Source: Gammaproteobacteria bacterium
GTDB lineage: Bacteria > Pseudomonadota > Gammaproteobacteria > GCA-001735895
Assembly: GCA_050298595.1 (NCBI GenBank)
Contig: JBNKUM010000028.1
Coordinates: 39,075-103,074 of the forward strand
Length of the DNA: 64,000 bases
Reading direction: 5' to 3'
Positions within the stretch are counted from its first letter, which is position 1, and each line of letters starts with the position of its first letter. Position numbers and translations under genes: made by a program. The notes beneath the pieces are model-generated. The model worked only from the letters and a program-made list of their open reading frames with translations, did not search any database and was not told where the DNA came from. Below, piece after piece: positions 38,270-60,075 of this stretch.

Positions 38270-39217
38270 TCAGGAAGGTATAAAGTCATAGGTGTAGGGA
38301 GCGATAATGACAGGCACTTTTTTGTTAGCAAACTTAAACTTGCTGATTTTTGAGATAAGGCGTTGTTCCATTTTTTTATTGCCTAGTTCGCTGGATACGA
38401 TGACACATTTGGTTACCGTACCATCAGGAGCAATAGTCAGTTCAAAAACAACCTTACCCTGTAATGTAGGGTCTTTGCGTAATTCACGATTATAGATTGC
38501 ATCGATAGCACCCTGATTCTTTTGGAAAACGAGAGCAATTTCTTCCTGACTACGGCTAGCACCACGTGATGAGGGTGTTGATGCTTTGGCGATCTGAGTT
38601 TTGCTGGCAATCTTGCTTTCGACCTTGCTGGTGGTTTGGCGTTGCGCAAGCTCACTGCCCTTGATCTTGCGAGACAGCGTATTTGTGGCAATGCCGCCAC
38701 TGCCCTGAGTAGCTTTAGCAGTCAGCACATCACTGGTTGATATGACGGTTTCAGCCTGATTCCCAGTTTTCTGTTGAGGCAGGTCGGCTATATCGGAAAA
38801 ATCAAAACTTTCTCGCAGATCCGACAGTTCGTCGCTCAAAGCAATTAAACCACTTTGCTGGGCTTTCTTTTTCGCCGCAGCTCGACTGTCTGGTTTTGTT
38901 TCGGGCTTGGGTATCTCTTTCGGTTTGGGTTTCTCAGGTTCTTTTTTCTCTTTTTTGGGTTTTTCAGCCTCTTTCTTTTCAGGCTTGGGTGGCGGCGGCG
39001 GTGGCTGCTTTTTCTTTTCCTGAATCAACTGCGCCAGACGGGGTGAAACATCTACCAGCTTGCGTTGTTTTGGCTCAGGAAGAATCACACTGTTGATGAT
39101 AAGGCCCAGGATTAGAAAAATTATTATCAGAGCAATTGCCATACGGCGAAACAGACGATCTTCCTTGCCTTCAACCCAGGGTAAAAGTAGATCGACGGGG
39201 ATTAATTGAGTTGACAT
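38270..39217 (-). CDS. TonB-like energy transducer with AgmX/PglI-type C-terminal domain (GltG-like)
   Basis: N-terminal TM, PPPPPP and KE-rich linker, C-terminal RS.EEI..VF......I..IYNRELRKDPTLQGKVVFELTI.PDGTV. Confidence 0.82.
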   Translation of the reverse strand: MSTQLIPVDLLLPWVEGKEDRLFRRMAIALIIIFLILGLIINSVILPEPKQRKLVDVSPRLAQLIQEKKKQPPPPPPKPEKKEAEKPKKEKKEPEKPKPKEIPKPETKPDSRAAAKKKAQQSGLIALSDELSDLRESFDFSDIADLPQQKTGNQAETVISTSDVLTAKATQGSGGIATNTLSRKIKGSELAQRQTTSKVESKIASKTQIAKASTPSSRGASRSQEEIALVFQKNQGAIDAIYNRELRKDPTLQGKVVFELTIAPDGTVTKCVIVSSELGNKKMEQRLISKISKFKFANKKVPVIIAPYTYDFIPS

Positions 39218-39218
39218 A

Positions 39219-39716
39219 TCAGCCCTCTACCTCAGCTGATTTCTGGATAACGGCAAATGACAGGTTGGTAAAACCGGCCCCCTGGCAGGTGAGCATTATT
39301 TTTTTTAGTAGTGCATAAGGTATCTCTCGATCAGCCATAATGGTGACACCTTTTTTATCGGTCAGGTCTTTAACTTTTACTACTGTAGTTTTGAGAGACT
39401 TAAACAATGCAGGAATAGTTTTTTGTTCAGGGTTGCTTACCGACTTTACGTCGACTACAGGTAAGCCTTCGAGATTAATGCTTTCATTATTCACTGAGAT
39501 GACCAGATTTCTACGTGGTACCTGATCAGCCATAGAATTGGGCAGCGTTATTTTTTTAGGAGTGGGTAACACCTCAGAACTGGTGGCATTGACCAGCAGG
39601 AAAAACACCAGGATGGTGAAGATATCCATCAGCGAAATCATGTTCAGCCCGGCATTACGATCCTTACTGCGGGCATGGTGTGACTGCATTCGTTTGGCGC
39701 GTCGTGAAAGTTTCAT
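39219..39716 (-). CDS. exbD: ExbD/TolR-family protein (AglS-like), membrane Asp retained
   Basis: LNMISLMDIFTILVFFLL TM with D31; IMADREIPY..LKKIM. Confidence 0.88.
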   Translation of the reverse strand: MKLSRRAKRMQSHHARSKDRNAGLNMISLMDIFTILVFFLLVNATSSEVLPTPKKITLPNSMADQVPRRNLVISVNNESINLEGLPVVDVKSVSNPEQKTIPALFKSLKTTVVKVKDLTDKKGVTIMADREIPYALLKKIMLTCQGAGFTNLSFAVIQKSAEVEG

Positions 39717-39741
39717 GAGCTATCCGTTATTTCTCACCAGG

Positions 39742-40236
39742 TTATTTGGCGGCATCGCCGATGGATATATCGGGAAACAGTTCAGCAAAAAACTGTTCAC
39801 CTTCGTACATGGCTGCATAGGAGCGAGCACTATCCATCACCTGGATCATGTCATTGTAGGGGGTATCTGCTTCAGACAGAATGGTGATATTAGTTTTATC
39901 TGGAAATCGTGATTTGATCATTTTCAGGGTTTCTTTTAATACCGCATAGTTTTGATCCTGTGCAGTTTTGGGTATGCGTTTGATCAGCCCGCCTTTATTA
40001 TCCGATACGATTAACGCATCCTTACGGATGGTTACACGTAATTCATAGGGCGGATTTTTAGGGTCTTCGTTATTGGCTGCGCCTGGAGGCGGCAGGTTCA
40101 GGTCAAGGATAGTGATATGACTGAAAACCGCTGTCATCAGTAGAAAAGGTACCAGTACCACCATCAGGTTCATGAAGGCAGTAATGTTGAGCTCAACCGC
40201 TGGATGTTTACGCCGTATGCGTTTATTTCGAGCCAT
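39742..40236 (-). CDS. exbD: ExbD/TolR-family protein (AglQ-like), Asn at the canonical Asp position
   Basis: LNITAFMNLMVVLVPFLLMTAVF TM with N23; TPYNDMIQVMD; LFPDISI. Confidence 0.85.
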   Translation of the reverse strand: MARNKRIRRKHPAVELNITAFMNLMVVLVPFLLMTAVFSHITILDLNLPPPGAANNEDPKNPPYELRVTIRKDALIVSDNKGGLIKRIPKTAQDQNYAVLKETLKMIKSRFPDKTNITILSEADTPYNDMIQVMDSARSYAAMYEGEQFFAELFPDISIGDAAK

Positions 40237-40239
40237 GGT

Positions 40240-40878
40240 TTACTGACCGGTGCTTTTGAATTTAGCCAGATGGTTGGTGAAACGCACGGTCGCCATTTCC
40301 AGGCTGTCGATAATCTCTGTGGTTTTGGTTTGTAGCAGGGTGTAAAAAACCAGCAGAGGAATTGCAACGATCAATCCGAAGGCTGTGGTGTTCATGGCGA
40401 CTGAGATACTGGTCGACAGGATTTCTGCCTTCATCGATGGGTCAACCTGAGCTACCGCAGTAAATGCCTTGATCAAGCCGATAATGGTACCCAGTAATCC
40501 CAGCAGAGTTGCTATGTTGGCAAATAGCGCCAGGTAATGAGTGCGTTTTTCGAGGCGAGGAATGGCTTCCATGATGCTTTCTTCCATCGAGGCTTCTATG
40601 TCTTCGCGACGGCGAGCATTTTTGAAGTTATTCAAGCCCTGAGCCAGAATTTTACTCACGGTTGAGTTCGATTCCCTGGTGAGTTTGATGACGCTGTTCA
40701 TTTCCCCTTTTTCAAGCATTGGGATGATCTGGTTAAGCACGAGACGATTTTTAGATTTCGCCACAGTTAGAAAAATATAACGTTCCAGAGTAATGGCCAG
40801 GCCTAAAGCGAGTACAACCAGTATCGGATACATAAAAGGTCCGCCTGACTGAAAAAAATTAATAACGGTGTTAAGCAT
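40240..40878 (-). CDS. exbB: MotA/TolQ/ExbB proton-channel protein (AglR-like)
   Basis: GGPFMYPI, ATLLGLLGTIIGLI, ISVAMNTTAFGLIVAIP. Confidence 0.9.
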   Translation of the reverse strand: MLNTVINFFQSGGPFMYPILVVLALGLAITLERYIFLTVAKSKNRLVLNQIIPMLEKGEMNSVIKLTRESNSTVSKILAQGLNNFKNARRREDIEASMEESIMEAIPRLEKRTHYLALFANIATLLGLLGTIIGLIKAFTAVAQVDPSMKAEILSTSISVAMNTTAFGLIVAIPLLVFYTLLQTKTTEIIDSLEMATVRFTNHLAKFKSTGQ

Positions 40879-40970
40879 GGGATCTTTCTCCGTGGTTCAT
40901 CGTGCAGTTGATATACTGCGGTGTTTGATTAAATAAATGTGATAAAGCGGTCATTGATTGTAAATATTTT

Positions 40971-41237
40971 CTAAAGTTCAGGATACAGTTCACGATAGTA
41001 TTTTACCTGGCGACGAAAGCTACTAGGTTCCAGAGGCTGCAGTGCATCATCCAGGACACTGCTATAAGCCGGTGTTGAAAGGTCAATTTTATCTGCCGGT
41101 TTCCAGGGCACGACATACATTACAGTGGGTAATTCCTTATTTCCAATGATAGATGTACCCTGCATCTCAAGACGTTCCTGCGCCAATACCTCAAGCGGAA
41201 GTATCAACAACATAAGGGGAATAAGTAATATTTTCAT
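40971..41237 (-). CDS. Small exported protein (GltF-like position)
   Basis: Signal peptide ending VLA; G.SIIGNKELPTVMYVVPWK; lies between the TPR lipoprotein and exbB. Confidence 0.7.
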   Translation of the reverse strand: MKILLIPLMLLILPLEVLAQERLEMQGTSIIGNKELPTVMYVVPWKPADKIDLSTPAYSSVLDDALQPLEPSSFRRQVKYYRELYPEL

Positions 41238-41244
41238 TCTACTT

Positions 41245-41847
41245 TTAACCTTCGTTTTTCTTGTCAATTCGACGTTGTAGATCAACTATCCATTTTTCTA
41301 CAGATTCATTTTTTGCACCAGTCAATTCCTGATACTTCTGATAATGAGCTAATGCATCATTCCATTGCTGTAGATAGATATCCAGCAATATACCCAGATT
41401 TAAATGCGCATTTGCATACTCGGGGTTAATTTCTAGCGCTTGCAGGTAATGCTGTTTTGCCGGTTCAAATAAACCCTGCTGGCGCTCGATAATGGCCAGG
41501 TGATTATAGGCAATTGCATCCTGTTTATCCTGCTCAATTGCGGTCAAAAATTCACTTTGGGCTGGTTTGTATTCTTTTTGTTGAAATAACAGCAAACCCA
41601 GATTGGTATGCGCATGCTTATATTCGTTATCAATAGCGATCAATTGTCGAAAGAAATCGATTGATTCGTGAGTTTGCCCCGCTTTTGCTGTGGAAATAGC
41701 GAGGTCGTAAAGCTCTAGCCTGGGGTCAACTTTAACGACTTCAGGTGCCTGCTCTGCTGGTTCTGGTTGAGTTGGAGCTATGCTCTGACAGGCAGATTGC
41801 AGAATGGCAAACAAAAAGATTAAGATCGGGTAGTTTTTATTCAACAT
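41245..41847 (-). CDS. TPR lipoprotein (GltE-like)
   Basis: Lipobox QSAC; TPR repeats AHTNLG, AYNHLA, AHLNLGILLDIY. Confidence 0.85.
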   Translation of the reverse strand: MLNKNYPILIFLFAILQSACQSIAPTQPEPAEQAPEVVKVDPRLELYDLAISTAKAGQTHESIDFFRQLIAIDNEYKHAHTNLGLLLFQQKEYKPAQSEFLTAIEQDKQDAIAYNHLAIIERQQGLFEPAKQHYLQALEINPEYANAHLNLGILLDIYLQQWNDALAHYQKYQELTGAKNESVEKWIVDLQRRIDKKNEG

Positions 41848-44629
41848 ATTGATCACTTATTTCAGTTTTGCCGTATCTAAAAGGTAGCAGTCTGGCCAGG
41901 CTTTGCAGGCTGTTTTTGATAGAGTCATCGTAGCTGCCTTTTGGAATTCTTGAGATATTGGTTTCGTGAATGGCGATTGCCTTTTCTTCAAAAGGAAATG
42001 CCTGATCTTCCAGCAGGTAGTTATATTCTTCCAGCTCTGCCGCGTTTAGATTTTTTGGTTTTTCTGAAGTTAATAATGCAGTGGCAAAATCACGATAGAT
42101 TTCGGCAATATAATAAGTAGAGGCGGTGGTTACTTCTTCAACCTGATATTTTGCTGCTTTTGTATAGGCTTTAATGGCTTTTTGCATTAGAGCTTTCTTC
42201 TTTTTCAAGCTTTTCTTCAGCGGCGTAGTAAGCCGAGCTTTAGTGTATTGTTGACGGATCGGCTCTATCAAAATCAGACTGGAGGTTGCCGCCAGATAGC
42301 GACTACGGTCACTGCGTTGAGTTTTGGCATTGGCATCTGCTTCGATAATACTATTTAGCCAGCTGTGATAATTTTTCGTATCCTTTTTATTCAGATAAGA
42401 CTGGGCTATTTTATAGCGTAACTCGATAGAGCGAGATAAGGGGTTGGGATATTTTTTGACATAGGTTTTATAGAGGTCTATAACCTTTTCTGGCTTCCCA
42501 TCTTTATCATGCAATTCGGCAGCCTGCCACAATAGATCACGCTGATCTTTGGTCGGGGAAAGGGCAACCAGTGCCATGACTTCTTTGGCAGCTTTGCCAT
42601 ATTGATTGGTATTGTTATAGCAAAGCGCAAGTTTCTCGCTAACACCCTGGTTCCATTTCTCCTGTTTTGGGTATTTACGCCGAAAATCTTCCAGAATGGT
42701 GATTGCGCTGGACCAGTCTTGCAGGGCTATGTATTCAGTGGCCGCATCGTACTGGGCGATGATTTTTTTGTCAGAACTGGGAACAACCTGGCCCAGGCGC
42801 TGAAAGTGCTGCGCAGCAAGTAGATGATCGCCCTGATTACGCGCCATTTCACCCTGCAGATAAATACTGGATGCCAGTTGGTCTTGCATTTGCTCGCGGG
42901 TTTTACGATCTTTAACCGCTAGCCCGGCGATGACCTGCTGGTAGGCATCTTCTGCCTGGGCATATTGCTTCAATTCAAACTGACTGTGAGCAATGATAAT
43001 CCAGGCCTGATGATGAATTTTTTTATCCAGCTGCAGATCATCTACAAGACGTTGCGAGGCATTAATCGCTTCGTTATATTTTTTTAGGCTGAAAAACTTT
43101 TCCGAGGTATTTAGTAGCACAGATGGCATACGTTTATCTTCAATGAATTTATCACTGAAGGTTAAAGAGCTTTGTATTAGACGCAGGTTTAAAGCGGGCT
43201 GTAATTCAGGTTTGGTGATTGCATACAGTGCGTTATAACTCATCAATGCGGCATAGCCCGCTTCAGCACTATTTTTATGTGGAGGGTACTGGTAGGCGGT
43301 TTTTTCATATTGCTCAATGGCCATTGCGTATTGTTTTGATTCGAAGCGTGTTTCGGCTAACAGGAAGTTGATTTCAGCCGCATCCTTGTCGTTAGGGAAT
43401 GAATCGAGATACAACTGATACCAACTGGCGGCAGTTTTGTAATCGCTTACTTTTTTGCTACTGCGTGCCAGTGCGTGGTAATGGGTTGAAATGTCGTATA
43501 AATGACGGGTTAATACAGGTTGTAGATCCTTGCGTGTCTGTTCATTGGCCTGTGACCAGTAAGCATTGCCGATATTGTAGTTCTCGATAAAACGACGCTT
43601 TTCTGCCAGTATCAGTTTGCTAAACCCGCCTTTCTGATAGGCGTCTATAGCCAGTCCATGCATCCCTGGGGTATAGATGGAGAAAGGGTAATTTTGCACA
43701 TAGGCCAGATAGTTATCAGCAGCATCGGTAATACGTTCTTTACTTAAATACAGCTCACCAAGTTTTAGATATAACAGGGGTTCATAGTCTCTTTTGCCGT
43801 GGGTGTTGAAGAATTGTGCGATGGGTTGTTTGCTGCTGCTGTAGGAAAATGAAAGACTGACAACGCGTAGTACATCGTTTAATAATTCCTGATCGGCGCG
43901 ACTTAAGGAAGCTGGTAGACTGTTTGGTTCGATCTTGCCTAATTTTTTATTGTAATCAAGGAGTGATATATAACTCTGGGTGGCGGCAACGTAATTACTC
44001 TGTTTAAACAATGCCCAGCCTTGCTTATACAGTGCTTTCTCGTAGTACAGGGAATCGGGAAAGTTTTCGACAATAACGGCATAGGCAGATTGTGCCTGTT
44101 TATATTCACCATCAAGAAAAAAGGCTTCCCCTCGGCGGAACTGTATTTCATCAATGTATTGAGACTGAGGAAAGTTAGATGCCAGTTGATCCATTGCGGC
44201 TCGTGCTTTCTCAGTTTCACCTTCAAGGGCATAAGCACGTGATAACTGGTACAGGATCAGGTCGTTATCGGGTCGGTATGGGTAGCGTTTCAAATAGGAT
44301 TGATAGCGTTGAATGGCTACCTGGGTTTCAAGTTTGGCGCGTTTTTCTATCTCTGGATCATCGGATAATTTATTGTCCATGCTAGCTTCCAGTTCGAGGT
44401 CAGCCAGACGTTGTACCTCTTTTCCGTAAACTTCATTCTGTGGCGTAATATCGATCAGTTCGCGATAGCTTTTAATGACCTTGCTTTTAGAGATGTCAAA
44501 ATTTACCTGAGGTTGAATCTCTTCTATCGGCTCTAATTCAATATCGGCAATATTACGAATATCTGGCGTGTTTGCGCAGCCCTGTAAAAGTAATAAAGTG
44601 AGTAGGAATATAAGCCAGCGATCAGTCAT
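41837..44629 (-). CDS. Large TPR lipoprotein (GltD-like)
   Basis: Lipobox LQGC; many TPRs (LYQLSRAY, QFRRGEAFF, ALYKQGW); C-terminal EEY..LLEDQAFPFEEKAI..HE.N. Confidence 0.85.
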   Translation of the reverse strand: MTDRWLIFLLTLLLLQGCANTPDIRNIADIELEPIEEIQPQVNFDISKSKVIKSYRELIDITPQNEVYGKEVQRLADLELEASMDNKLSDDPEIEKRAKLETQVAIQRYQSYLKRYPYRPDNDLILYQLSRAYALEGETEKARAAMDQLASNFPQSQYIDEIQFRRGEAFFLDGEYKQAQSAYAVIVENFPDSLYYEKALYKQGWALFKQSNYVAATQSYISLLDYNKKLGKIEPNSLPASLSRADQELLNDVLRVVSLSFSYSSSKQPIAQFFNTHGKRDYEPLLYLKLGELYLSKERITDAADNYLAYVQNYPFSIYTPGMHGLAIDAYQKGGFSKLILAEKRRFIENYNIGNAYWSQANEQTRKDLQPVLTRHLYDISTHYHALARSSKKVSDYKTAASWYQLYLDSFPNDKDAAEINFLLAETRFESKQYAMAIEQYEKTAYQYPPHKNSAEAGYAALMSYNALYAITKPELQPALNLRLIQSSLTFSDKFIEDKRMPSVLLNTSEKFFSLKKYNEAINASQRLVDDLQLDKKIHHQAWIIIAHSQFELKQYAQAEDAYQQVIAGLAVKDRKTREQMQDQLASSIYLQGEMARNQGDHLLAAQHFQRLGQVVPSSDKKIIAQYDAATEYIALQDWSSAITILEDFRRKYPKQEKWNQGVSEKLALCYNNTNQYGKAAKEVMALVALSPTKDQRDLLWQAAELHDKDGKPEKVIDLYKTYVKKYPNPLSRSIELRYKIAQSYLNKKDTKNYHSWLNSIIEADANAKTQRSDRSRYLAATSSLILIEPIRQQYTKARLTTPLKKSLKKKKALMQKAIKAYTKAAKYQVEEVTTASTYYIAEIYRDFATALLTSEKPKNLNAAELEEYNYLLEDQAFPFEEKAIAIHETNISRIPKGSYDDSIKNSLQSLARLLPFRYGKTEISDQYVE

Positions 44630-46487
44630 TTTTCTTCTCGCTATTTGCCAGGTCATCATATAAACGGGCCAGGGAGTAACGCGCGCTCAGACGTAACTGT
44701 TTGATATGATCCTGTTGCTGAAGCAGTGTATTGATAGCTACCTGGTTAATATAATTTTTCTGTCTGCCGAGCAGGTTATCAACCTGCGTAAACAGCTGAC
44801 TAATTATCGACGATTGCCCTGCAATGCGCTTATCTAGCTCGCTTAGTGTGTTGTCGTTAACTACAGCGGCAAGGCTGAGTGATTGAGCGGCTGCACTGGT
44901 TTCAAGCATGGACTGCTTAAGTGACTTCAGTTCAGATGTCGCGCGCCAGGCACGTGTGGGAAAATCGGTTTCTATCTGATATTGCAGCAATCCTTTTAGC
45001 AGACGGTATTTGGCTTTTTCTGCGCTTAAATCCTGCTGCCCTTCAAGTTGATCAAGAATAGATTTTAATTCATCCAGCTGTTGCAGATATTCAGTTTCAT
45101 CTGCATCGGCCAGAGCCAGATAATTCTCTTCATTAACTATTGAGGTCACTTTCTGTGAGAGTTGTTCAACCTGTGATTGAAAGTCGTTTATATGTTCTAA
45201 TTCTGCATTGTTTTCAATGGCTGGACGCTTGGCCTCAAAATTTGCTCGACGTTCTTTAAGCATTAATGTCAGTACTGGGAGATTCTCATCCCATTTAAGC
45301 AGAGCATCCAGAATATCAAGCAGTTCCTGATAACGGCGAACCTGTTGTTGGAATTGTTTGTCTGCGATCAGTGTATACAGATAGTTCGCTGTGTTTTTTT
45401 CCAGCGTTGTTTCGCCTATCAGTTTAATGCTTGAATCTTCAATGATGCGATGTTGAATCAGTGCATCAATCAGTTGGTCATCAGTGATCTGAGAAATAAG
45501 TTTTTGTTGCTCGACCAATAGTTTGTCGAAGTTGGCGGCTGCCTGACGATAGTATTCAATTGCCTGAGTTTTACGTTGTTTGAGTTCCAGAGCATAGGGA
45601 ATAGCCAGATAGGATTCCAGAGTCGCACCATCTATCTGAGTTTTTTTCTGCAACACTCTCCAGTAACTCATGGCCTTATCCAGATCAGATTTCTGGCTCC
45701 AGGCCCAACCTATGCCAAGCAAAGCTTTATTTGAAACGGGTCCAGAGAAGCGAATTTTTAAAAAATGTGCGATTGCGGCATCATTTTCTTCATGCCTCAG
45801 GCTGTTCAATCCTAATGCCAACTGACTCGAATCCAGTAAGCCAGCAAACTCATCACCGGGTATGCTAAGTTTTTGCAGACTTTCCAGGCCCTGGTAACCG
45901 GGTTCTTCCTGACCAGCTGTTATTTGCGCAATCGATAAGTTGTATATTGCATAAGCACGCCAGATGCTACGAGGGTCAATTTTCTGTATAGCATCTGCAG
46001 CCTGCTCGAAGTTTTGTTTGCGGGTAAACAGAGAACTCAATAGATACTGTCTTTGTTGTTCACGTTGTGCGGGCAGGGGATTTGAAATTCGTGATAGCAG
46101 TTGTTCAGCCTGCTCGAAATTGCCCTGTTCAAACTGTACTCTGGCCAGATTGAACCAGACACGGTTCTGGGTGTTTGTGGATTTTTCCTGTTGCAGCAAC
46201 TGATTGAATATCTGTTCGGCGTCATCGCTTAAGCCGTAGTTAAAGTACAGGCTACCGCGTAATAACTCGGCATCATGGGGTTGTACCTTGAATGCGTTTT
46301 TAAATTTTCCTACATCAATTTCGGTAATTGCATTTAGCGTTTTATTCTGGAACAGCTGATACAGTGCTGTGCCGTACGGCAGGTCGAGAGTGGGGAGATC
46401 TTTCTCTGCACGTAAGCTATGAGTGACAATTAAGAGCGGGAGTGTCAGGCATACAGACCGGATTTTAAAACGAAATACTTTCATCAC
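44622..46487 (-). CDS. Exported TPR + coiled-coil protein (GltC-like)
   Basis: Signal peptide, TPRs (VWFNLARVQF, ALLGIGWA), long coiled coil, C-terminal ARYSLARLYD. Confidence 0.8.
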   Translation of the reverse strand: MMKVFRFKIRSVCLTLPLLIVTHSLRAEKDLPTLDLPYGTALYQLFQNKTLNAITEIDVGKFKNAFKVQPHDAELLRGSLYFNYGLSDDAEQIFNQLLQQEKSTNTQNRVWFNLARVQFEQGNFEQAEQLLSRISNPLPAQREQQRQYLLSSLFTRKQNFEQAADAIQKIDPRSIWRAYAIYNLSIAQITAGQEEPGYQGLESLQKLSIPGDEFAGLLDSSQLALGLNSLRHEENDAAIAHFLKIRFSGPVSNKALLGIGWAWSQKSDLDKAMSYWRVLQKKTQIDGATLESYLAIPYALELKQRKTQAIEYYRQAAANFDKLLVEQQKLISQITDDQLIDALIQHRIIEDSSIKLIGETTLEKNTANYLYTLIADKQFQQQVRRYQELLDILDALLKWDENLPVLTLMLKERRANFEAKRPAIENNAELEHINDFQSQVEQLSQKVTSIVNEENYLALADADETEYLQQLDELKSILDQLEGQQDLSAEKAKYRLLKGLLQYQIETDFPTRAWRATSELKSLKQSMLETSAAAQSLSLAAVVNDNTLSELDKRIAGQSSIISQLFTQVDNLLGRQKNYINQVAINTLLQQQDHIKQLRLSARYSLARLYDDLANSEKKND

Positions 46488-46502
46488 TAAGCGCTAATAA
46501 GC

Positions 46503-47033: not shown

Positions 47034-47077
47034 GTGAATAACCTGTTATACCCTGTTAAATTTAGTTATTTTGCGAT

Positions 47078-52335: not shown

Positions 52336-52337
52336 GA

Positions 52338-53591
52338 TTAATTCCCCTTGCAGTAGGCTGCAACATCGCGAAACACCTGTTTCATCCTGAAGCCGGCCTT
52401 GAAGTCGCTAACAATGTTGTTTACCTCACTACGGTCTGCTGCGTAGTTATCCGGATCACGAAAACACACGGCTTTAAAGGCTTTCTTAACCTGACACTGG
52501 GCAAATGCTTCGCTATAGGCGAGTTCCTTACCCATTGATTTGGGGCCATTACCGTAGGCGTGCCCCTTGGCATCTTTTTGCACATCCGGATAGTCATTCC
52601 AGCCAAGCAGGGCGTTGGGGCCGTTGCGCCAGTAGTTTATCCAGCTGTCGTCGGTGGTGATAAAACCCTGTTTGAAGTTATTCGAGTTGATCAGGTACTT
52701 GGGCCGGACTGTACCTGCTGTGTATAGCAACTTAAGATTAGCTGCATCTTCCGTAACCTCGCCATTACCATCTTCAGTAGTCAGATCAAGATAGGCATAA
52801 GCCCCCAGTAGGCCGTCCATGCCAGCATGGCAACCGACGCAGGAGTTCAGGTAGATCTGGCTGTCGCCACCCGGGCTGCGCGCGACATCCTGATGCACTC
52901 GATCAGGGGTGCGTGAGTTATCCTTGATCTGTTCCAGATCGTTACATAGGTGGTTGAGCATGGTAAAGCGAAACAGCGCGCGATTGGTTCCAAGAATCAA
53001 AAATGCTCGTGCTGAAGCACGTGTGGTTATGACGCCAGCGGTGGCGGCTTCATCCAGCTGCGTGACGGCACTCTGGGCTTTTTTCTGTAGTATGTTTATG
53101 TCGGAAAGATCACCATCTACAGGGCCAAGTGCTTCCAGCTCCTGATAGTGCAAATTGTCTACATTATGGTATGGGGTAATTGGCTGACCATCTTTATTGA
53201 GCAGGTTGAAGTTTCCGGTATAAATGATGTCTCCGTATAGAATTTCACGAAAGTCGATATCATCACGTACCATGCCAATCACTGTGGCAGTGTAGTCGTT
53301 AAGTGGTGTGAATATTGTTTGCTCTTCGTTGGTCCAGGGAGCGGCCCAGTTTTTCAGTGTGACGTTGTAAAAGGCAGGGTCCTGCAGGGCGATTTCAGCA
53401 GCCGTTTTTCCACTAGCGTCCGAAATAAGGGCGGTTTCCATACTGTTTAGAACGCTAGCCGAAGGTGGCACACCGGTAAGACGGTCATGAATACGTTTGG
53501 CCTGACGCCTTTCCTGATCCCCGGCAAACAGTGACTGGCTGATCAATAGTAAAAGTATAACGGCGCTAGTGGCGAGAGAACTTTTTTGCAT
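52338..53591 (-). CDS. Exported monoheme c-type cytochrome-like protein
   Basis: Signal peptide (LFA); AKRIHDRLTGVPP; CVGCH (52827-52841) followed by AGMD; FAQCQVKK. Confidence 0.75.
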   Translation of the reverse strand: MQKSSLATSAVILLLLISQSLFAGDQERRQAKRIHDRLTGVPPSASVLNSMETALISDASGKTAAEIALQDPAFYNVTLKNWAAPWTNEEQTIFTPLNDYTATVIGMVRDDIDFREILYGDIIYTGNFNLLNKDGQPITPYHNVDNLHYQELEALGPVDGDLSDINILQKKAQSAVTQLDEAATAGVITTRASARAFLILGTNRALFRFTMLNHLCNDLEQIKDNSRTPDRVHQDVARSPGGDSQIYLNSCVGCHAGMDGLLGAYAYLDLTTEDGNGEVTEDAANLKLLYTAGTVRPKYLINSNNFKQGFITTDDSWINYWRNGPNALLGWNDYPDVQKDAKGHAYGNGPKSMGKELAYSEAFAQCQVKKAFKAVCFRDPDNYAADRSEVNNIVSDFKAGFRMKQVFRDVAAYCKGN

Positions 53592-53956: not shown

Positions 53957-56716
53957 GTGTTAATAAAAAATCATTACCCATTTTTCGCAGCAATATTGCA
54001 CCTTGCGCTAACTGGTTGCACCGAAAGTACTACCGGCAGTAAGGTGACGGGTGCTGACCCCGGTGTTTTGGAGGCGCCAATTGCTTTTGTTAAGCGACCC
54101 ATAGCGCTAGATGATAATGGCAACGAATTACAGTCCGATTTGCGCGAACCCCTGTTTTTTATGGCAGGCGGTGATGTTTATTTGCGCAGTAATTCTACCG
54201 TCACTGCAACCGAAAAAAATATTACCTTCAGTGTGACCGGCGGACAGGGAGATGTTAAGGGGTTAAGACCATCATTTGATGGCACCAAGCTGCTGTTTTC
54301 TCTACGTCTGTTTGATGATGACCTCAATGACGACGTAATTCCAAGCTGGAATATCTATGAATATGACCTGGGTACTGAAACGCTACGCCGGATTATTGAT
54401 GATAATTTGATTGCAGAGGAAGGCGACGATCTATCACCTGCTTATCTACCTGATGGGCGCATTATCTTCAGTTCTAACCGTCAGGTTCAGTCGGTTGAAA
54501 TGCTGTCTAATGAAAAGGGTAAACCTTTCAGGGCGCTGGATGAAGACGAGAATACGCTGGCCATGGTGCTGCATGTGATGGACGAGAATGGTGGTGAGCT
54601 TCATCAGGTTTCATTCAACCAGAGCCATGATCTGGATCCTACGGTATTAACGCATAACTATTCCGGTGAAGTGATGTTCACCCGTTGGGATAATGCGGGC
54701 AGCAATAGTTCAATGAATCTCTATAAGATGACTCCTGATGGAACCAGCCTGCAGGTGTTATATGGCGTGCATAGCCATGACACCGGGGCCAACAATAGTG
54801 GTAGTGATGATGCCACTATCCAGTTTACTCAGGCTCAGGAAATGGAAGATGGCCGCATTATTACCATAGCTCGACCTTTTACCAATACCTTTGATGGTGG
54901 TGATATTGTGATCATAGATGCGCAGAACTTCGCCAATAATTTTCAGCCGGTAGCGGGTATGAGCAGTCCAGGGCCTGCGCAAAGGTCAGCAACCATTAAC
55001 CCTGTCTCCACTGAAACAACGAATAATGAGCCATCTCTGGGTGGCCGCTATCGCTCTGTTTTTCCACTGTGGGATGGTTCGGATCGAATCATGTTTAGTA
55101 AAAGTACCTGTGAGCTGGATGTGAATGGTACGCGTAGACCCTGCATAGAACCCTATATATCAGATGTGTCAGCGGTTGAAGTATCACCCACTTATAGCAT
55201 CTGGTTATACGATATGAATCAGCACTCACAAAAGGTCATAGTGCGTGCCGAACAGGGCATGGTGATTAGCGATATAGTTGCCTTACAGGCAAGAGAAAAG
55301 CCGGATATTGTTTTTGATAAAGCTGGCGCTGACCTGAATACTACCTGGGCTTCGGATGTAGTCGCAGCACTGCATATAAGGAGTGTTTATGATTTTGGCA
55401 ATGGCAGCTTTAATGGATGCTTCCTCACACAATGTACATCAGCAAATGGAATTACCAGTGTGAATGATCTGGGTGATCCGTTAAAAGCTGGCGCAGATCA
55501 GCGTCCTGCTCGCTTTGTGCGCTTTGTTAAACCGGTTTCCCTGCCAGACCCTGATGACCCTGATCTGGCTAACCCCCCTGATCTGAATCGTGCTGCGTTC
55601 GGTCCATTGCGCAATCTGGCCATGCGTGAAATTGTCGGTTATGCACCTGTAGAGCCGGATGGTTCGGTGAAGGTGAAATTACCTGCGGATATTCCACTGG
55701 GGGTTGAAGTGCTGGATAAGATGGGCAGACGTATTGGTCCGCGTCACGAAAACTGGTTCCAGTTACGCCCGGGCGATACGATGGAATGCACCGGTTGTCA
55801 TACGGAAAATACCAGCAATAATGCGGTTCCTGATATTCATCATCGGCGTGACGCAGAAGCCGCGTCAATCAATGAGGGTATTCCAGCCAGTGGTGTTTTT
55901 GAAAATACACAGATACCCGGAAGTAGCGATAAATACTGGGGAAATCCGGGAGAAACTATGGCTGAAGTCAGGTTTCGATTAGCACCAGCAGAGCCAGAGG
56001 TTAATACTGATATTGTGTATGACGACTACTGGACAGACCCTGCATTGAATGCTGCATTTAGCTATGAGTATGGACTGCTTGATTCAAGCATCAGTTCTCC
56101 CGCAAGATCTAGCTGTACACCTTGGACTTATACCTGCCGCATTGTGATCAATTATGAACAGCATATTCATCCATTGTGGAATTTACCGCGTGGAGTAGCT
56201 GGCGTAGATACCTGCACCAATTGCCATAGCAAAACGGATTCAGTTCAGATGATCGATAGAGTACCGGCAGCGCAACTGGATTTAACCGATGGATTTTCGG
56301 ATATTGCGCCACAAATGCACTATAAGTCTTACGATGAATTGCTGGTCGCAGATGCTGGGCAGGAAATAGATGCAACAGGTAGTCTTGAGAACATTCAGAT
56401 CGAAGTGCCGATACTTGATGAGAATGGTGTTCAGGAAGTAATCAATGGTATACCACAAACCGAGTTTATTCCTGACCCATCTGCTACTGTGAGACCCTCC
56501 ATGTCAGCAAACGGAGCGAGGGCCAGCTATTTCATGGAAAAAATGACCGAAACCGAGTTGGACGCTGGCCGTACTTTAACTCGGGTAACAAATCCGAATT
56601 ATGTCGACCATTCAAATTTTATGGACGAACATGAATTGCGCCTGATCGCTGAATGGCTGGATTTAGGCGCACAATATTTTAATGACCCGTTTGACCCGGC
56701 AGTGCCGATGAATTAA
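53957..56716 (+). CDS. Beta-propeller (PD40) lipoprotein with hydrazine-synthase-alpha-like middle domain and two c-heme motifs
   Basis: Lipobox LTGC; PSFDGTKLLFS, PAYLPDGRIIFSSNR, FTRWD propeller blades; GYAPVEPDGSVKVKLPA...EVLD..GR...W.QLRPG...CTGCH; later CTNCH. Confidence 0.8.
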   Translation: MLIKNHYPFFAAILHLALTGCTESTTGSKVTGADPGVLEAPIAFVKRPIALDDNGNELQSDLREPLFFMAGGDVYLRSNSTVTATEKNITFSVTGGQGDVKGLRPSFDGTKLLFSLRLFDDDLNDDVIPSWNIYEYDLGTETLRRIIDDNLIAEEGDDLSPAYLPDGRIIFSSNRQVQSVEMLSNEKGKPFRALDEDENTLAMVLHVMDENGGELHQVSFNQSHDLDPTVLTHNYSGEVMFTRWDNAGSNSSMNLYKMTPDGTSLQVLYGVHSHDTGANNSGSDDATIQFTQAQEMEDGRIITIARPFTNTFDGGDIVIIDAQNFANNFQPVAGMSSPGPAQRSATINPVSTETTNNEPSLGGRYRSVFPLWDGSDRIMFSKSTCELDVNGTRRPCIEPYISDVSAVEVSPTYSIWLYDMNQHSQKVIVRAEQGMVISDIVALQAREKPDIVFDKAGADLNTTWASDVVAALHIRSVYDFGNGSFNGCFLTQCTSANGITSVNDLGDPLKAGADQRPARFVRFVKPVSLPDPDDPDLANPPDLNRAAFGPLRNLAMREIVGYAPVEPDGSVKVKLPADIPLGVEVLDKMGRRIGPRHENWFQLRPGDTMECTGCHTENTSNNAVPDIHHRRDAEAASINEGIPASGVFENTQIPGSSDKYWGNPGETMAEVRFRLAPAEPEVNTDIVYDDYWTDPALNAAFSYEYGLLDSSISSPARSSCTPWTYTCRIVINYEQHIHPLWNLPRGVAGVDTCTNCHSKTDSVQMIDRVPAAQLDLTDGFSDIAPQMHYKSYDELLVADAGQEIDATGSLENIQIEVPILDENGVQEVINGIPQTEFIPDPSATVRPSMSANGARASYFMEKMTETELDAGRTLTRVTNPNYVDHSNFMDEHELRLIAEWLDLGAQYFNDPFDPAVPMN

Positions 56717-56760
56717 CGTCTGCACTTTGCAGGGAAGAGTTTTATGATTTTAGCAGTCCA

Positions 56761-57525
56761 TTGATTACAAAAATAACAAGCACCGTGCATTTTTTCATTC
56801 TGGTTATATTGTTACTGCCCGCCATTGTGCGTGCAGAAACAGACAATGCCCAGCAGTTAACTATTGCCGATCCATATATTGAGATGCACACCGGCCCCGC
56901 TTCGGCTTACCCGATATTTCATGTGCTTGATCGAGGTGAAAAGATCAGCGTCATCAAGAGCAAAACCAACTGGTATCAGATACGTTCAAGCAAGGGAACC
57001 GAAGGTTGGGTGAATCGGGATCAATTACAACAGACATTGTTACCCAGCGGGCAGCAATTAAAGCTGCGCGATCTGTCGGAACAGGATTTTAAAGCGCGGC
57101 AGTGGGAAATGGGGGTATTGTCAGGTGAACTGGAAGGCGCTCCTGTAATATCATTCTATGGGGCCTATGCCTTTACCGAAAATTTATCGGCAGAGTTAAA
57201 TCTGGGACAATCTGTGGGTTCGGTTTCCACTAGTTTGTTGTATAAACTTAACTTGCTCATGCAGCCATTTCCTGAATGGGAGTATTCGCCGTTTTTTACT
57301 CTTGGGCTGGGGCATATTAATGTAAAACCCAATGCGACCTTGATTAACCCTGCAGATAAAGACAACCAGTTAAGCCAGATTGGCATCGGCTTCAGGAAAT
57401 TTTTAAGTCGGCGTTTTGTAGTTCGAGCAGAGTATAACGAGTATGTTATTTTTTCCGCCAGCAATGCTAAAGATGAAAATGAGGATATAGGTGAATGGAA
57501 ATTAGGTTTCGCAGTCTTTTTCTAA
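56761..57525 (+). CDS. SH3-like domain + outer-membrane beta-barrel protein
   Basis: Signal peptide; MHTGP..AYPI....RGE....WY.IR....EGWV SH3; barrel strands ending WKLGFAVFF (C-terminal Phe). Confidence 0.8.
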   Translation: MITKITSTVHFFILVILLLPAIVRAETDNAQQLTIADPYIEMHTGPASAYPIFHVLDRGEKISVIKSKTNWYQIRSSKGTEGWVNRDQLQQTLLPSGQQLKLRDLSEQDFKARQWEMGVLSGELEGAPVISFYGAYAFTENLSAELNLGQSVGSVSTSLLYKLNLLMQPFPEWEYSPFFTLGLGHINVKPNATLINPADKDNQLSQIGIGFRKFLSRRFVVRAEYNEYVIFSASNAKDENEDIGEWKLGFAVFF

Positions 57526-58154
57526 GCCTGTTATTAATCGTATTTTGCACAACGCTTTATGCGGCTGAACCGGCTGCTGAATCTGATCAGCAATCGCTGT
57601 TAATTCAAACGGATATTCAGCGACAACAGTTTGATGAAGCGCTGATCAATGCAGATGATTTTGAAATAATGCTGGCACTGGGTTACCTGAGTATTGAAGA
57701 TTTTGGTGTTAATCCGTTGATGGTTGCCAAGCTTGATTACCATGTAAATGAAGATATCTTTTTACAGATGGCGTATGGACAAAGCAAAGGTGGTACCACA
57801 AGTTGGGAAGTGTTGTCTGCAGGGGCGCCGCTGCTTACTGATGCTGAACGCGAATTGACTTATTACAGTATCAATATCGGATATAACCTGTTGCCGGGTG
57901 AAGCCTTCCTGACTGAGACCAGAACCTTTAATACCGCTTTTTATCTCACCGCCGGGATGGGTGTCACCGAATTCGCCGGAGAGAGTCGATTCACTATTAA
58001 CTATGGTACGGGTTATCGTTTCCTGCTCAATGATTCCTGTGCGATGTATATAGATTACCGAAACAACCAGTTTGATATGAATGTATTTGGTGAAACCAAA
58101 CCCAAAGCCACCAATAACCTTGAATTCACTTTCGGTATCAGCTGGATCTTCTAG
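57495..58154 (+). CDS. Small outer-membrane beta-barrel protein (GltA/B-like)
   Basis: Signal peptide; amphipathic strands; GYNLLPGE; C-terminal NLEFTFGISWIF BAM-type motif. Confidence 0.8.
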   Translation: MEIRFRSLFLSLLLIVFCTTLYAAEPAAESDQQSLLIQTDIQRQQFDEALINADDFEIMLALGYLSIEDFGVNPLMVAKLDYHVNEDIFLQMAYGQSKGGTTSWEVLSAGAPLLTDAERELTYYSINIGYNLLPGEAFLTETRTFNTAFYLTAGMGVTEFAGESRFTINYGTGYRFLLNDSCAMYIDYRNNQFDMNVFGETKPKATNNLEFTFGISWIF

Positions 58155-58165
58155 AGAGAAAAACT

Positions 58166-58669
58166 ATGAACAAAATATTTTTCTGGATCAAATTATTAAG
58201 CGCAGTGTTTACGCTATTGTTTGTCACTTCATTGCAGGCCCTGACGCTGGAAAAGGCAGCGCCAGATTTTACTCTGAAGAGTTTACAGAATAATAATATC
58301 AAACTCAGCGAACAGGCAGGCAATGTCGTGCTGCTCAATTTCTGGGCTTCCTGGTGTGGCCCCTGTCGTAAAGAAATGCCACTGCTCAATGATTTGCACA
58401 ATAAATATAAAGCACTGGGTTTCAGTGTGATAGGGGTCAATGTGGAACAGGAATCCAATCTGGCAAAATCATTCATCTCCAGTTCTCCGGTAGATTTTCC
58501 CATTCTGTTAGACGACAGTAATATAGCCAGCAAGTTATATGATGTAAATGCCATGCCTACCACAGTCATTATTGATCGCAATGGTGTGGTTAGACATTTG
58601 CATAAGGGTTACAAGGATGGTGATGAAAAAGCCTACCAGAAAGTGGTAAAAAAACTGTTACGTGAATAG
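58166..58669 (+). CDS. TlpA-family thiol:disulfide oxidoreductase
   Basis: APDFTL, LNFWASWCGPCRKEMP, AMPTT.IIDR.G. Confidence 0.92.
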   Translation: MNKIFFWIKLLSAVFTLLFVTSLQALTLEKAAPDFTLKSLQNNNIKLSEQAGNVVLLNFWASWCGPCRKEMPLLNDLHNKYKALGFSVIGVNVEQESNLAKSFISSSPVDFPILLDDSNIASKLYDVNAMPTTVIIDRNGVVRHLHKGYKDGDEKAYQKVVKKLLRE

Positions 58670-58673
58670 CTAT

Positions 58674-58904
58674 ATGAAACGATCTATTCGATCTCTAATG
58701 TTGTTGACGCTGTTACTTTGCCTGCAGGCCTGTAGCAGTGTTGAGCCCTGGGTCAAGCCCTACGAGCGCGCGCATCTGGCCGATCCTGTTATGGATGTTA
58801 ATCGTGATCCAGTTGCTACTAATTATATCCACCACGTTTATGATTCGCGTGAAAGCGCACGGGGTGCAGGTGTCGCCAGCGGTGGTGGTTGTGGCTGTAA
58901 TTAA
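58674..58904 (+). CDS. DUF4266-like small lipoprotein
   Basis: Lipobox LQAC; VKPYER..LADP.M, HH....RE.A.G, C-terminal GGGCGCN. Confidence 0.85.
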   Translation: MKRSIRSLMLLTLLLCLQACSSVEPWVKPYERAHLADPVMDVNRDPVATNYIHHVYDSRESARGAGVASGGGCGCN

Positions 58905-60075
58905 TATGTTGATCTGGCCAATGAAAAACGGATTTTTTCAGCGCCTTTTATTATTGCTGTTGGGTCTGGTGTATTTTTCTAATGCCTCAGCCCTGGTGCT
59001 ACCAGAAGATCGTGCGGATGTTCTCTATCATAGTTACGATGGTGGCGGTGCCGAGATATCCGGCCCTTCGATACTCATCAGAAAAAAGTTTAGCGAAAAT
59101 GTATCCGCCTCGTTTAATAACTATGTGGATAATGTTTCCAGTGCCTCTATTGATGTAATGACAACAGCCAGTAAATACACTGAGGAGCGTAAAGAAAACT
59201 CAATCAATCTGGATTATTTGCACGATAAAACTCTGATGAGTGTGGGTTATACCAACAGTAGTGAAAGTGATTATGATGCCGCTACAGTCAACCTGAATTT
59301 CTCTCAGGATTTTTTTGGTGATCTGACAACCCTGAGTATGGGTTATGCGATGGGTGACAATACGGTGAAGCGTAACGGAGACCCGGACTTTAAAGAAGAG
59401 CTACAATCTCGCAGTTACCGTGTATCACTATCTCAGGTAATCACTCAGGATACGATCATGTCCTTTGCGTTTGAATCTATCACCGATGAGGGTTTTCTTA
59501 ATAACCCCTATCGACAGGTACGCTATCTCAATTCTGCGGTAATATCTGGATATAGTTATATAGCTGAAAAGTACCCTAACACCAGGACCAGTAATGCTTT
59601 TGCGGTTAGCGCGCGTTACTATCTGTCGCAGCGCTCAGCCTTGCATGCGGGGTATCGTTACTTCAGTGATGACTGGGGGATAGAAGCTGATACCTTCGAG
59701 CTGGGTTATACCTTGCCTTATGATGAAGACTGGTTGCTGGAGTTTAGCTATCGATCTTATGGCCAGACTCATGCTGATTTTTATAGCGACCTATTACCTT
59801 TTTGGGAGCCAGGTAACGATCCGCAGACTTTTTATGGCAGAGACAAAGAACTAAGTACTTTTAACGATAGCTCTATTGGCGTGGGTGCAAGCTATGAGTT
59901 CAAAAAGAATGGTGATGGCTTTATAAAAAGAGGCACTGCCAACCTGTTTATCGATTACATCTCTTTTAACTACGATGACTTTAGAGATTTAACTAAAGCT
60001 GCAGCGCCTGGTGAAGAGCCTTTATATAAAATGGATGCTACGGTACTGCGCCTGTTTGTTTCGATCTGGTTTTAA
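58891..60075 (+). CDS. DUF3570-like outer-membrane beta-barrel protein
   Basis: Probable GTG start overlapping the GCGCN codons; D..SSAS/D..TTAS, SSESDY, G.LNNPYR, EKYPNTR, YRYFSDDWGI, SYRSYGQ; C-terminal Phe. Confidence 0.82.
   Translation: MAVINMLIWPMKNGFFQRLLLLLLGLVYFSNASALVLPEDRADVLYHSYDGGGAEISGPSILIRKKFSENVSASFNNYVDNVSSASIDVMTTASKYTEERKENSINLDYLHDKTLMSVGYTNSSESDYDAATVNLNFSQDFFGDLTTLSMGYAMGDNTVKRNGDPDFKEELQSRSYRVSLSQVITQDTIMSFAFESITDEGFLNNPYRQVRYLNSAVISGYSYIAEKYPNTRTSNAFAVSARYYLSQRSALHAGYRYFSDDWGIEADTFELGYTLPYDEDWLLEFSYRSYGQTHADFYSDLLPFWEPGNDPQTFYGRDKELSTFNDSSIGVGASYEFKKNGDGFIKRGTANLFIDYISFNYDDFRDLTKAAAPGEEPLYKMDATVLRLFVSIWF

Follow-up and report, generated by a model that had tools for sequence, protein, structure and literature searches.

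A divergent gammaproteobacterial locus that combines a Glt-like envelope motor with outer-membrane barrels and haem, flavin and thiol proteins

Three sets of bacterial envelope genes that have been published separately, namely a Glt-like core complex (2011), the PSCyt/DUF1501 modules (2012) and the DUF3570 module (2021), have counterparts side by side in the locus described here, which occupies positions 38270-60075 of a 64-kb stretch of gammaproteobacterial DNA (contig JBNKUM010000028.1, assembly GCA_050298595.1; the whole stretch analysed is referred to as the window). The core complex of the Gammaproteobacteria consists of gltC, gltD, gltE, gltG, aglR, aglQ, aglS and one extra gene, and its function is unknown (Luciano 2011, PMC3169522). 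The related gliding machinery of Myxococcus contains two small outer-membrane barrels, the paralogues GltA and GltB, which stabilise each other and bind GltC, a tetratricopeptide repeat (TPR) protein (PMC4488436). A platform of GltA, GltB, GltH and GltK governs the surface exposure of the lipoprotein CglB, and the TonB-like proteins GltG and GltJ are proposed to pull on this outer-membrane platform (bioRxiv 10.1101/2020.07.22.216333). The PSCyt/PSD genes form modules with DUF1501/DUF1552 genes in Planctomycetes and Verrucomicrobia, for which no function is known (Kamneva 2012, PMC3542564). Finally, clusters that join ApbE and DUF3570 genes with thioredoxin-like genes and with DUF4266 have been described, and 316 such DUF3570 clusters without DsbD were counted (Meheust 2021, PMC8238504).

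The locus consists of two packed divergent runs, 13 genes on the minus strand (38270-53591) and six on the plus strand (53957-60075), with gaps of 1-92 bp or brief overlaps between the genes of both runs according to the map of open reading frames (ORFs). Domains were assigned with Pfam and NCBIfam models and haem sites were taken as CXXCH motif counts, which gave five sites in total. Each of the 19 products carries an N-terminal signal, a lipobox or a membrane helix, as judged by eye from the N-termini. An initial annotation, made from the sequence without database searches, had described these two runs with their domains and haem motifs and had called every product exported or membrane-bound, and both descriptions were borne out, the second by the inspection of the N-termini; the family scan that it proposed recovered the predicted families and left a 176-aa exported protein (exp176), a protein exported by twin-arginine translocation (Tat), a small exported protein and a mono-haem protein without a family. 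We interpret the locus as one integrated cell-envelope system of three stacked layers, in which a motor would act on outer-membrane lipoprotein cytochromes and a flavinylated barrel, and assign this reading a probability of about 0.5. As the initial annotation had supposed, no functional description of the combined system was found in the literature searched. Some of these neighbours may be listed in the tables that supplement Luciano 2011 and in Supplementary file 1 of Meheust 2021, which gives the five genes on either side of every DUF3570.

The motor and TPR genes lie at the distal end of the minus-strand run:

38270-39217, minus strand: GltG-type TonB-like transducer, 315 aa, composed of an N-terminal transmembrane helix, a linker rich in Pro and Lys and an AgmX/PglI-TonB_C domain at the C-terminus
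39219-39716, minus strand: ExbD/TolR-like stator subunit that retains the transmembrane Asp (LMDIF); ExbD, 68.7 bits
39742-40236, minus strand: ExbD/TolR-like stator subunit in which Asn takes the place of the transmembrane Asp (FMNLM); ExbD, 54.8 bits
40240-40878, minus strand: ExbB/TolQ/AglR-like proton channel; MotA_ExbB, 106 bits
40971-41285, minus strand: small exported protein, ORF of 104 aa with a likely Met start near 41237 and a signal-like N-terminus
41245-41856, minus strand: TPR lipoprotein, 203 aa, in the GltE-like position; TPR families and a lipobox-like LQSAC
41837-44659, minus strand: TPR lipoprotein, 940 aa, in the GltD-like position; YbgF/CpoB-type and BamD-type TPRs (TPR_6, YfiO)
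44622-46487, minus strand: exported TPR protein, 621 aa, near GltC in size (673 aa, PMC4488436); TPR_16 and related families
46503-47033, minus strand: exp176, taken as the marker for the Glt-like block; without a match in Pfam or NCBIfam

With one TolQ-like, two TolR-like, one GltG-type TonB-like and three TPR proteins clustered with one extra gene, this block is like the core complex of Luciano 2011, a correspondence in composition and clustering. The MotA_ExbB gene and the two adjacent ExbD genes are the counterparts of aglR and aglQ/aglS, the three TPR proteins are comparable in size and order to GltC, GltD and GltE, and the host group is that of the core complex, the Gammaproteobacteria, where its families include Marinobacter, Teredinibacter and Saccharophagus (Luciano 2011). 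The match to the Agl-Glt core that the initial annotation had proposed holds in composition for the TPR, TonB-like, TolQ and two TolR components. The small protein, which it had counted in the matching set, is more likely the extra gene of Luciano 2011, because GltF is not part of the gammaproteobacterial core (PMC3169522). The same paper agrees with its statement that core homologues outside gliding bacteria have no assigned function. The available text of Luciano 2011 mentions no adjacent barrels, cytochromes, ApbE or DUF3570 and describes GltA and GltB as confined to two orders, Myxococcales and Bdellovibrionales; in the present locus, by contrast, the block comes with a TIGR04565-type barrel pair. 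The two barrels have 254 and 219 aa compared with 275 aa for GltB and 256 aa for GltA of Myxococcus (PMC4488436), and barrel-associated lipoproteins occur in both systems. The locus shares its kinds of parts, placed in all three envelope layers, with the Agl-Glt gliding and Nfs spore-coat machines of M. xanthus; the partners are haem, flavin and thiol proteins here, whereas they are adhesin or polysaccharide in the Myxococcus machines. Among the ORFs of the locus, to which this search was restricted rather than extended to the genome, no equivalents of GltI, GltJ, GltK, GltH, CglB or AglZ and no MglA/MreB coupling genes were identified, and gliding motility of the host is not expected.

The outer-membrane, haem, thiol and flavin genes comprise the plus-strand run and the ApbE gene of the minus-strand run (HZS stands for hydrazine synthase):

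47078-48073, minus strand: ApbE FAD:protein FMN transferase with a signal peptide; ApbE, 280.5 bits
53592-53956, no strand: divergent intergenic region, 365 bp between the runs by ORF coordinates
53957-56716, plus strand: HZS-like lipoprotein, 919 aa, with a PD40 propeller, an HZS_alpha middle domain (52 bits) and two CXXCH
56761-57525, plus strand: SH3 domain with a small outer-membrane beta-barrel, 254 aa, in the GltB/GltA-like position; SH3_3, 44 bits; OMP_b-brl, 28 bits
57495-58154, plus strand: small outer-membrane beta-barrel, 219 aa, OMP_myx_plus type; TIGR04565, 147.1 bits (cut-off 60)
58166-58669, plus strand: TlpA/ResA-like periplasmic thioredoxin with CGPC; Redoxin, 108.8 bits
58662-58904, plus strand: DUF4266 lipoprotein with a C-terminal GCGCN (CXC motif); DUF4266, 73.6 bits
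58906-60075, plus strand: DUF3570 protein, a likely outer-membrane barrel and ApbE substrate; DUF3570, 149 bits; tandem DNVSSAS and DVMTTAS (the longest ORF would start at 58738, the true start is near 58906)

ApbE, DUF3570, DUF4266 with its C-terminal CXC and a thioredoxin-fold protein occur together as in the module of Meheust 2021, and the initial annotation had rightly taken them for a recognised flavinylation module (PMC8238504). Unlike that module, the genes are embedded here among cytochromes, barrels and a motor, and the thioredoxin is of the Redoxin/TlpA type, whereas that of Meheust 2021 belongs to PF13899.

The third set is a trio that proved to be separable from the remainder:

48083-49687, minus strand: Tat-exported protein, 534 aa, with a predicted alkaline-phosphatase-superfamily fold; twin-arginine SRRDFIRQG, no family
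49696-52335, minus strand: LamG dihaem lipoprotein, 879 aa, with a Laminin_G_3 domain and two CXXCH
52338-53591, minus strand: exported mono-haem protein, 417 aa, of the PSD2 (DUF1585)/PSCyt3 type, with one CXXCH

The combination of a Tat-signal enzyme-like protein with CXXCH proteins that may carry Laminin_G_3 is like the PSCyt/DUF1501 modules. In contrast to these, the haem proteins lack PSCyt1, PSCyt2 and PSD1, the Tat protein has no Pfam match, the trio belongs to a gammaproteobacterial host and it forms part of a larger locus.

All window proteins were mapped by tblastn onto 80 related loci, the best 80 of 563 confirmed loci obtained with the Tat protein as query against species-representative genomes. 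Nearly all of the 80 are gammaproteobacterial, and the cultured carriers include several Microbulbifer (among them M. agarilyticus and M. variabilis), Biformimicrobium ophioploci and Marinibactrum halimedae. Its recurrence in these 80 loci, all from other genomes, confirms the gene set as real and not a chance assembly. All of the 52 loci that extend 9 kb or more upstream of the Tat gene contain the mono-haem and LamG genes, and 51 of them also contain the HZS-like, both barrel, TlpA and DUF4266 genes (the exception is L011). The exp176 block lies directly downstream of the Tat gene in 53 out of 80 loci, is inverted on the other side in three (L032, L036, and L043), is not found within at least 3 kb downstream in 14, and the flank is too short to place it in ten. 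ExbB is included in 35 out of 38 loci with at least 7.5 kb past exp176, and for the three loci that have the TPR block with no adjacent motor (L010, L052, and L083), each genome was found to encode a strong GltG-like match at another site (E 1e-92 to 1e-110). Five of the 14 cases lacking the downstream block were searched further and exp176 was found elsewhere in the genome in four of them, each time within a complete ApbE-exp176-TPR-TPR-TPR-small-ExbB-ExbD-ExbD-TonB block. This block adjoins the DUF3570 end in G002, is placed some 10.7 kb beyond the Tat gene in G003 and is located on another contig in two genomes; the fifth genome searched (G005) gave no exp176 match.

A different arrangement is present in L100, L101, and L108, where ApbE, the HZS-like gene, a 167-aa gene, two barrels, TlpA, DUF4266 and DUF3570 open one co-directional run that continues with exp176, three TPR genes, the small gene, ExbB, two ExbD and TonB. 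The genomes of L100 and L101 contain no Tat protein, and in the genome of L108 (G155) the trio is located 198 kb away. Overall, linkage is retained in at least four gene orders, including the fusion to a single co-directional run. As a separate observation, an extra gene of 167-173 aa without Pfam match stands between the HZS-like and SH3-barrel genes of the co-directional arrangement in L100 (5974-6477) and L106 (4596-5117); the window lacks a gene there.

Profiles of exp176, the HZS-like lipoprotein and the Tat protein served to survey the phyletic distribution in an even sample of 400 genomes of the class Gammaproteobacteria. A total of 76 genomes contain exp176, 51 the HZS-like protein and 48 the Tat protein. 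The HZS-like protein is accompanied by exp176 in 50 out of 51 genomes (the exception is G049) and the Tat protein in 46 out of 48 (not in G049, and not in G007, whose Tat match is fragmentary and lies at the end of a contig), and therefore the sets are nested, the motor block enclosing the HZS/barrel module and this in turn the Tat trio. Nine genomes have the HZS-like protein without the Tat protein, and 21 have exp176 with neither. The profiling of neighbourhoods and genomes that the initial annotation had suggested thus gave co-occurrence of the HZS-like protein with exp176 and, on the other side, motor cores that stand bare. By hand count, the Tat and exp176 genes of the 46 genomes that have both are <3 kb apart in 16 genomes, 4.5-29 kb apart on the same contig in 14, at least 58 kb apart on the same contig in three and on different contigs in 13. 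In at least nine of the 14 genomes exp176 follows the HZS-like gene on its strand at a distance of 3.3-5.4 kb, which places the whole motor block in the other divergent operon in those lineages. A maximum-likelihood tree of 71 exp176 sequences puts the 67 barrel/redox-linked sequences on one side of a branch with support 90/70 and the four bare-core sequences outside that branch, where they form long branches in a tree whose root is not known. Paralogous second Glt-like blocks (L094 and L096) keep small barrels and have no ApbE. When the genes around paralogous blocks and around bare ones were scanned with Pfam, barrels and DUF3570 were the only partners to recur.

Since the linkage survives rearrangements and the phyletic pattern is nested, it is supported that the modules belong together. 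Several observations weigh against the reading of the locus as one integrated system. In 26 out of 76 exp176 genomes the motor block is present and the HZS-like gene is missing, and the four HZS-less loci that were fetched (L102-L105) are bare cores. G049, a complete genome, carries the Tat trio and has no exp176 match, and G005, which also carries the trio, has neither exp176 nor a GltG-like match while its HZS-like and barrel genes look intact (the completeness of this genome is not known). The Glt likeness is at the level of domains only and every Glt equivalog cut-off was missed; both DUF3570 motifs lack the Gly of the published [S/T]GA[S/T] and have Ser/Thr instead; and a DsbD or quinol dehydrogenase for electron input at the inner membrane is not encoded in the locus or in the rest of the window. 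The surveyed genomes are related and so are non-independent samples, many of them metagenome-assembled genomes, and for this reason Fisher values on the co-occurrence are not readable as probabilities. A further point is a redox core without adjacent ApbE, exp176, TPR or motor genes on another contig of the host genome of the window (C118), in which exp176 is present only once. The locus is therefore not one indivisible unit, as shown by motors without redox genes, by the trio at 198 kb (G155) or without exp176 (G049) and by the motorless C118 core. The claim of the initial annotation that the modules form one unit is accordingly supported in part, by the conserved linkage and nested distribution, and qualified by the HZS-less motors, the separable trio and the C118 core. 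Its further proposals, that the machine would export, assemble or energise a surface redox complex, for example for extracellular electron transfer or for attack on a polymer or mineral, are conjecture.

These exceptions bear on the possibility that a Tol-like maintenance paralogue, a DUF3570 module and a PSCyt/DUF1501-like trio are independent neighbours that share regulation or hitch-hike and nothing more. The bare cores, the trio found apart in G155 and G049, and a DUF4266-DUF3570 pair on contig C12 of this genome (L109:1450-2948) speak for such independence; the C12 pair is canonical (PF12094, 318 bits over nearly the whole model), and no other locus gene was recognised in the 4.2 kb read around it, where no family scan was run. 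Independence sits poorly with the persistence of linkage through four or more gene orders, with the two small barrels still held by L094 and L096, and with the single genome out of 51 that has the HZS-like gene without exp176, where the gene is truncated. In that genome (G049, 3.4 Mb) the HZS-like gene covers approximately residues 5-444 and the trio is kept, no barrels, TlpA or DUF4266 were found by tblastn with the window proteins in the surrounding 20 kb (L098, G049:C1:1994000-2013999), and the region looks like a decayed locus. Independence is on balance considered quite improbable.

The C118 copy (L097:4527-17330) comprises a second set of Tat, LamG-dihaem, mono-haem, HZS-like, SH3-barrel, barrel, TlpA, DUF4266 and DUF3570 genes, which are 38-55% identical to the window set (about 30% for DUF3570) and are flanked by a TonB-dependent receptor gene (L097:60-2801) and two TetR regulators. 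One motor block and two redox cores in this genome fit one machine with several cargo sets and independence equally.

The neighbouring receptor gene is also a point in favour of energised uptake or gating in place of export or exposure, in which case the TonB-like arm would open DUF3570 or the small barrels, as ExbBD-TonB does with TonB-dependent transporters, and a substrate would reach periplasmic haem, flavin and Tat enzymes. Such a role further accords with the TonB_C-type C-terminal domain of the arm, with the ExbB/ExbD-like stator and with the description of AglRQS-GltG as a putative TonB-type unit (bioRxiv 10.1101/2020.07.22.216333). Pfam scans found no match to Plug or TonB_dep_Rec in any barrel of the locus, which speaks against it. 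To our knowledge, the TonB uptake systems described so far include nothing equivalent to the three large TPR scaffolds and the several lipoproteins, a further point against uptake, which is regarded as unlikely.

The components of the motor were compared with the family models in detail. The TonB-like protein matches the AgmX/PglI tail model NF033768 (69.1 bits, cut-off 40) and TonB_C (22.5 bits), reaches 49 bits with the GltG equivalog (cut-off 650) and 33.7 bits with tolA_full (cut-off 59.45), and finds weak TonB matches in the PDB. TolQ is the best NCBIfam match of the ExbB-like protein (72.8 bits, under the cut-off of 221), the TolR equivalog gives 33.5 and 31.1 bits with the two ExbD proteins (cut-off 127.3), and the 203-aa TPR protein gives 43 bits with the GltE model (cut-off 225). 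The 940-aa TPR protein exceeds the cut-off of tol_pal_ybgF (114 bits, cut-off 90.1), and no protein of the locus matches the GltC or GltD models of NCBIfam. The Asp-bearing transmembrane motif of the ExbD protein at 39219-39716 is kept in its orthologues, and Asn or Ser replaces the proton-relay Asp in all orthologues of the ExbD protein at 39742-40236 seen across loci; judged from these residues the two ExbD/TolR-like subunits are not equivalent. The small exported protein belongs to no Pfam or NCBIfam family and is present in the same place in related loci.

With its stator architecture, its TolA/TonB-like arm and a YbgF-type TPR protein the block is also like Tol-Pal and ExbBD-TonB, from which it differs in having two dissimilar TolR-like subunits (one without the Asp) and three large TPR proteins. 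Neither Pal nor a TonB-dependent receptor was found at the locus, to which the search was confined, the canonical tol-pal genes of the genome not having been searched for. A Tol-Pal-like machine could serve outer-membrane tethering or lipoprotein handling, with redox genes that mature or repair its own Cys-rich and haem parts and with no outward electron transfer. TolQ, TolR, TolA and YbgF/CpoB as best NCBIfam matches (the 940-aa protein passing the YbgF cut-off), the PD40 repeat of the HZS-like lipoprotein, a kind found in TolB, and 4-8 Cys beyond haem motifs and lipoboxes in the haem and Tat proteins are in agreement with such a role, while a total of five haem sites, together with a flavinylated barrel and an ApbE of its own, would be a large outlay for housekeeping and the TolQ and TolR equivalog cut-offs were missed widely. 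It is rated very unlikely.

The predicted structure of exp176 (predicted local distance difference test score, pLDDT, 84.7) consists of a long helix followed by a beta-sandwich, and a fold search gave generic Ig/transthyretin-like matches only and therefore no functional lead. As a candidate for a new ApbE substrate exp176 was rejected: the window protein has D-Y-R-R-G-A-T, and the G-A-T is not conserved in 62 homologues.

Among the outer-membrane genes, the HZS-like lipoprotein has a single relative in the PDB, the hydrazine synthase alpha subunit (5c2v_A, E 1.1e-18), with an alignment that is limited to the middle domain and the C-terminal tail and covers the first CXXCH. Hydrazine synthase alpha shares the propeller, the middle domain and two haem motifs with it; the host is not an anammox bacterium, the HZS-alpha equivalog NF052339 reaches 44.9 bits and misses its cut-off of 800, and no beta or gamma partner genes of hydrazine synthase are present at the locus. 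The 919-aa lipoprotein should not be named hydrazine synthase. The available text of a paper on HZS homologues (PMC12758564) makes no mention of Gammaproteobacteria or TolB. The SH3-barrel protein reaches 34 bits with TIGR04565 and remains under the cut-off of 60 that the 219-aa barrel passes.

The ApbE gene of the locus is one of four in this genome. The strict flavinylation motif [S/T]GA[S/T] is absent from every protein of the locus and likewise from 114 out of 120 close DUF3570 homologues, and the sites in DUF3570 were found with a relaxed motif after this null result with the strict one. The first motif, in the variant D.[VI][ST]SAS, is present in 119 out of 120 close homologues and the second, a following [STV][STG]A[ST], in 109 out of 119. 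The tandem motifs align with the motif region of the C12 paralogue (DSLTGSS) and with the SGAS of the C118 paralogue (second site). Since the DUF3570 protein of Chlorobium is a proven ApbE substrate with two sites (PMC8238504), the DUF3570 protein of the locus is likely to be a substrate of ApbE.

The trio could be connected to described families through diverged relatives. The mono-haem protein of the window has no Pfam match, and seven out of 11 of its homologues match PSD2 at E <= 0.001, one of them above the cut-off (28.8 bits, cut-off 25.8), with PSCyt3 matching weakly; the PSD2 matches tie the trio to the planctomycete PSCyt/DUF1501 modules. Laminin_G_3 is also present in 11 out of 11 scanned homologues of the LamG dihaem lipoprotein. 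The Tat protein family comprises 7974 clusters at 90% identity among 8000 candidates scored and 1519 clusters at 50% identity. No Pfam model matches the Tat protein of the window or any of 30 diverged relatives; DUF1501 (PF07394) gives no match to the window protein up to E 10 and none in this genome. A profile of 77 diverse Tat protein members (A5) was aligned by hhalign with a DUF1501 profile built from nine gammaproteobacterial genes (A4) at 81% probability and E 1.2e-5 over 319 columns, with the Tat signal and the GG.D..N, GG.D.H and D-G/F-G motifs aligned in order, and a shallower Tat alignment (A1) gave 10% only. A homologue of the Tat protein in a protein atlas (P0029) has DUF1501 as its lead (0.91). 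The AlphaFold model (pLDDT 84.7, predicted template modelling score, pTM, 0.84) resembles nucleotide pyrophosphatases (NPP), sulfatases, phosphoglycerate mutases (iPGM) and phosphoethanolamine transferases with VIA Z values of 11-12.5 over 217-249 residues at a root-mean-square deviation of 3.8-4.9; the Foldseek E-values are all above 0.001. Sequence searches of the PDB with the Tat protein, the Tat profile and the exp176 profile returned nothing meaningful. By profile and model, the Tat protein has an alkaline-phosphatase-superfamily fold, is distantly DUF1501-like and represents a family without a database model. Two of the related loci show interruptions of a different kind: L020 (a scaffold of the Olavius algarvensis Gamma 3 symbiont) and L054 have Tat-homologue frames with 7 and 11 stop codons, and in L020 the match of the 940-aa TPR protein is split by about 2.7 kb, which may reflect either frameshifted genes or assembly errors.

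Outside the locus the window encodes ordinary metabolism (e.g., polyhydroxyalkanoate genes, aconitase B, malate synthase, and MoeA). Scans for promoters, which included the divergent intergenic region, and for terminators gave no more sites than shuffled sequence. The flanking genes, a DUF6394 membrane protein and a TrkA-N/ion-channel protein on one side (60164-62281) and a small Lys/Ala-rich DUF2934 protein on the other (37765-38019), were not found in related loci. Two MoeA-family genes, one fused to a PBP-like domain, are located about 7 kb from the locus (window 27803-30942), and in G170 a MoeA gene (L100:341-1609) adjoins the ApbE gene that heads the long run, possibly by coincidence.

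In the reading as one integrated system, the first layer would be a Tol/Glt-type proton-driven machine made up of the channel, a heteromeric ExbD/TolR-like pair and the GltG-type arm, together with a GltC/D/E-like periplasmic TPR scaffold, exp176 and the small exported protein. The second would be an outer-membrane module of GltA/GltB-like barrels, the DUF3570 barrel, the DUF4266 CXC lipoprotein, TlpA and the HZS-alpha-related dihaem lipoprotein, in which ApbE most likely flavinylates the DUF3570 barrel at the two tandem Ser sites. The mono-haem protein, the LamG dihaem lipoprotein and the putative Tat-exported enzyme of alkaline-phosphatase fold would form the third layer as a separable add-on. 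By analogy with the exposure of CglB in Myxococcus, the action of the TonB-like arm would reach the barrels by way of the TPR scaffold and thereby bring about the insertion, exposure or gating of the lipoprotein cytochromes and the flavinylated barrel, resulting in an electron path from thiol to flavin to haem at the outer membrane. Motor-controlled handling of outer-membrane lipoprotein cytochromes is thus our best guess for what the system may do. A bolder version would be a mechanically operated outer-membrane electron conduit, in which the motor pulls on the GltA/B-like barrels and threads or exposes the HZS-alpha-like and LamG lipoproteins beside a doubly flavinylated DUF3570, so that the proton-motive force switches surface redox chemistry on; we hold this version to be doubtful. 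If it were true, the ancestral job of the machine behind the myxobacterial gliding motor would have been the handling of redox lipoproteins at the outer membrane.

The gammaproteobacterial Glt core, from which the myxobacterial gliding and spore-coat machines are considered to descend, has been without a known function since 2011, and the conserved combination described here in many marine Gammaproteobacteria is the first concrete clue to the target of its motor. The function of DUF3570-based flavinylation has been described as uncertain and that of the PSCyt/DUF1501-type modules is unknown. Owing to the conserved, nested genomic tie between these sets, each of the three questions can be put to the test in a single system with culturable carriers. 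Control of the surface exposure of cytochrome lipoproteins by the motor, if it does occur, would represent a principle new to extracytosolic electron transfer.

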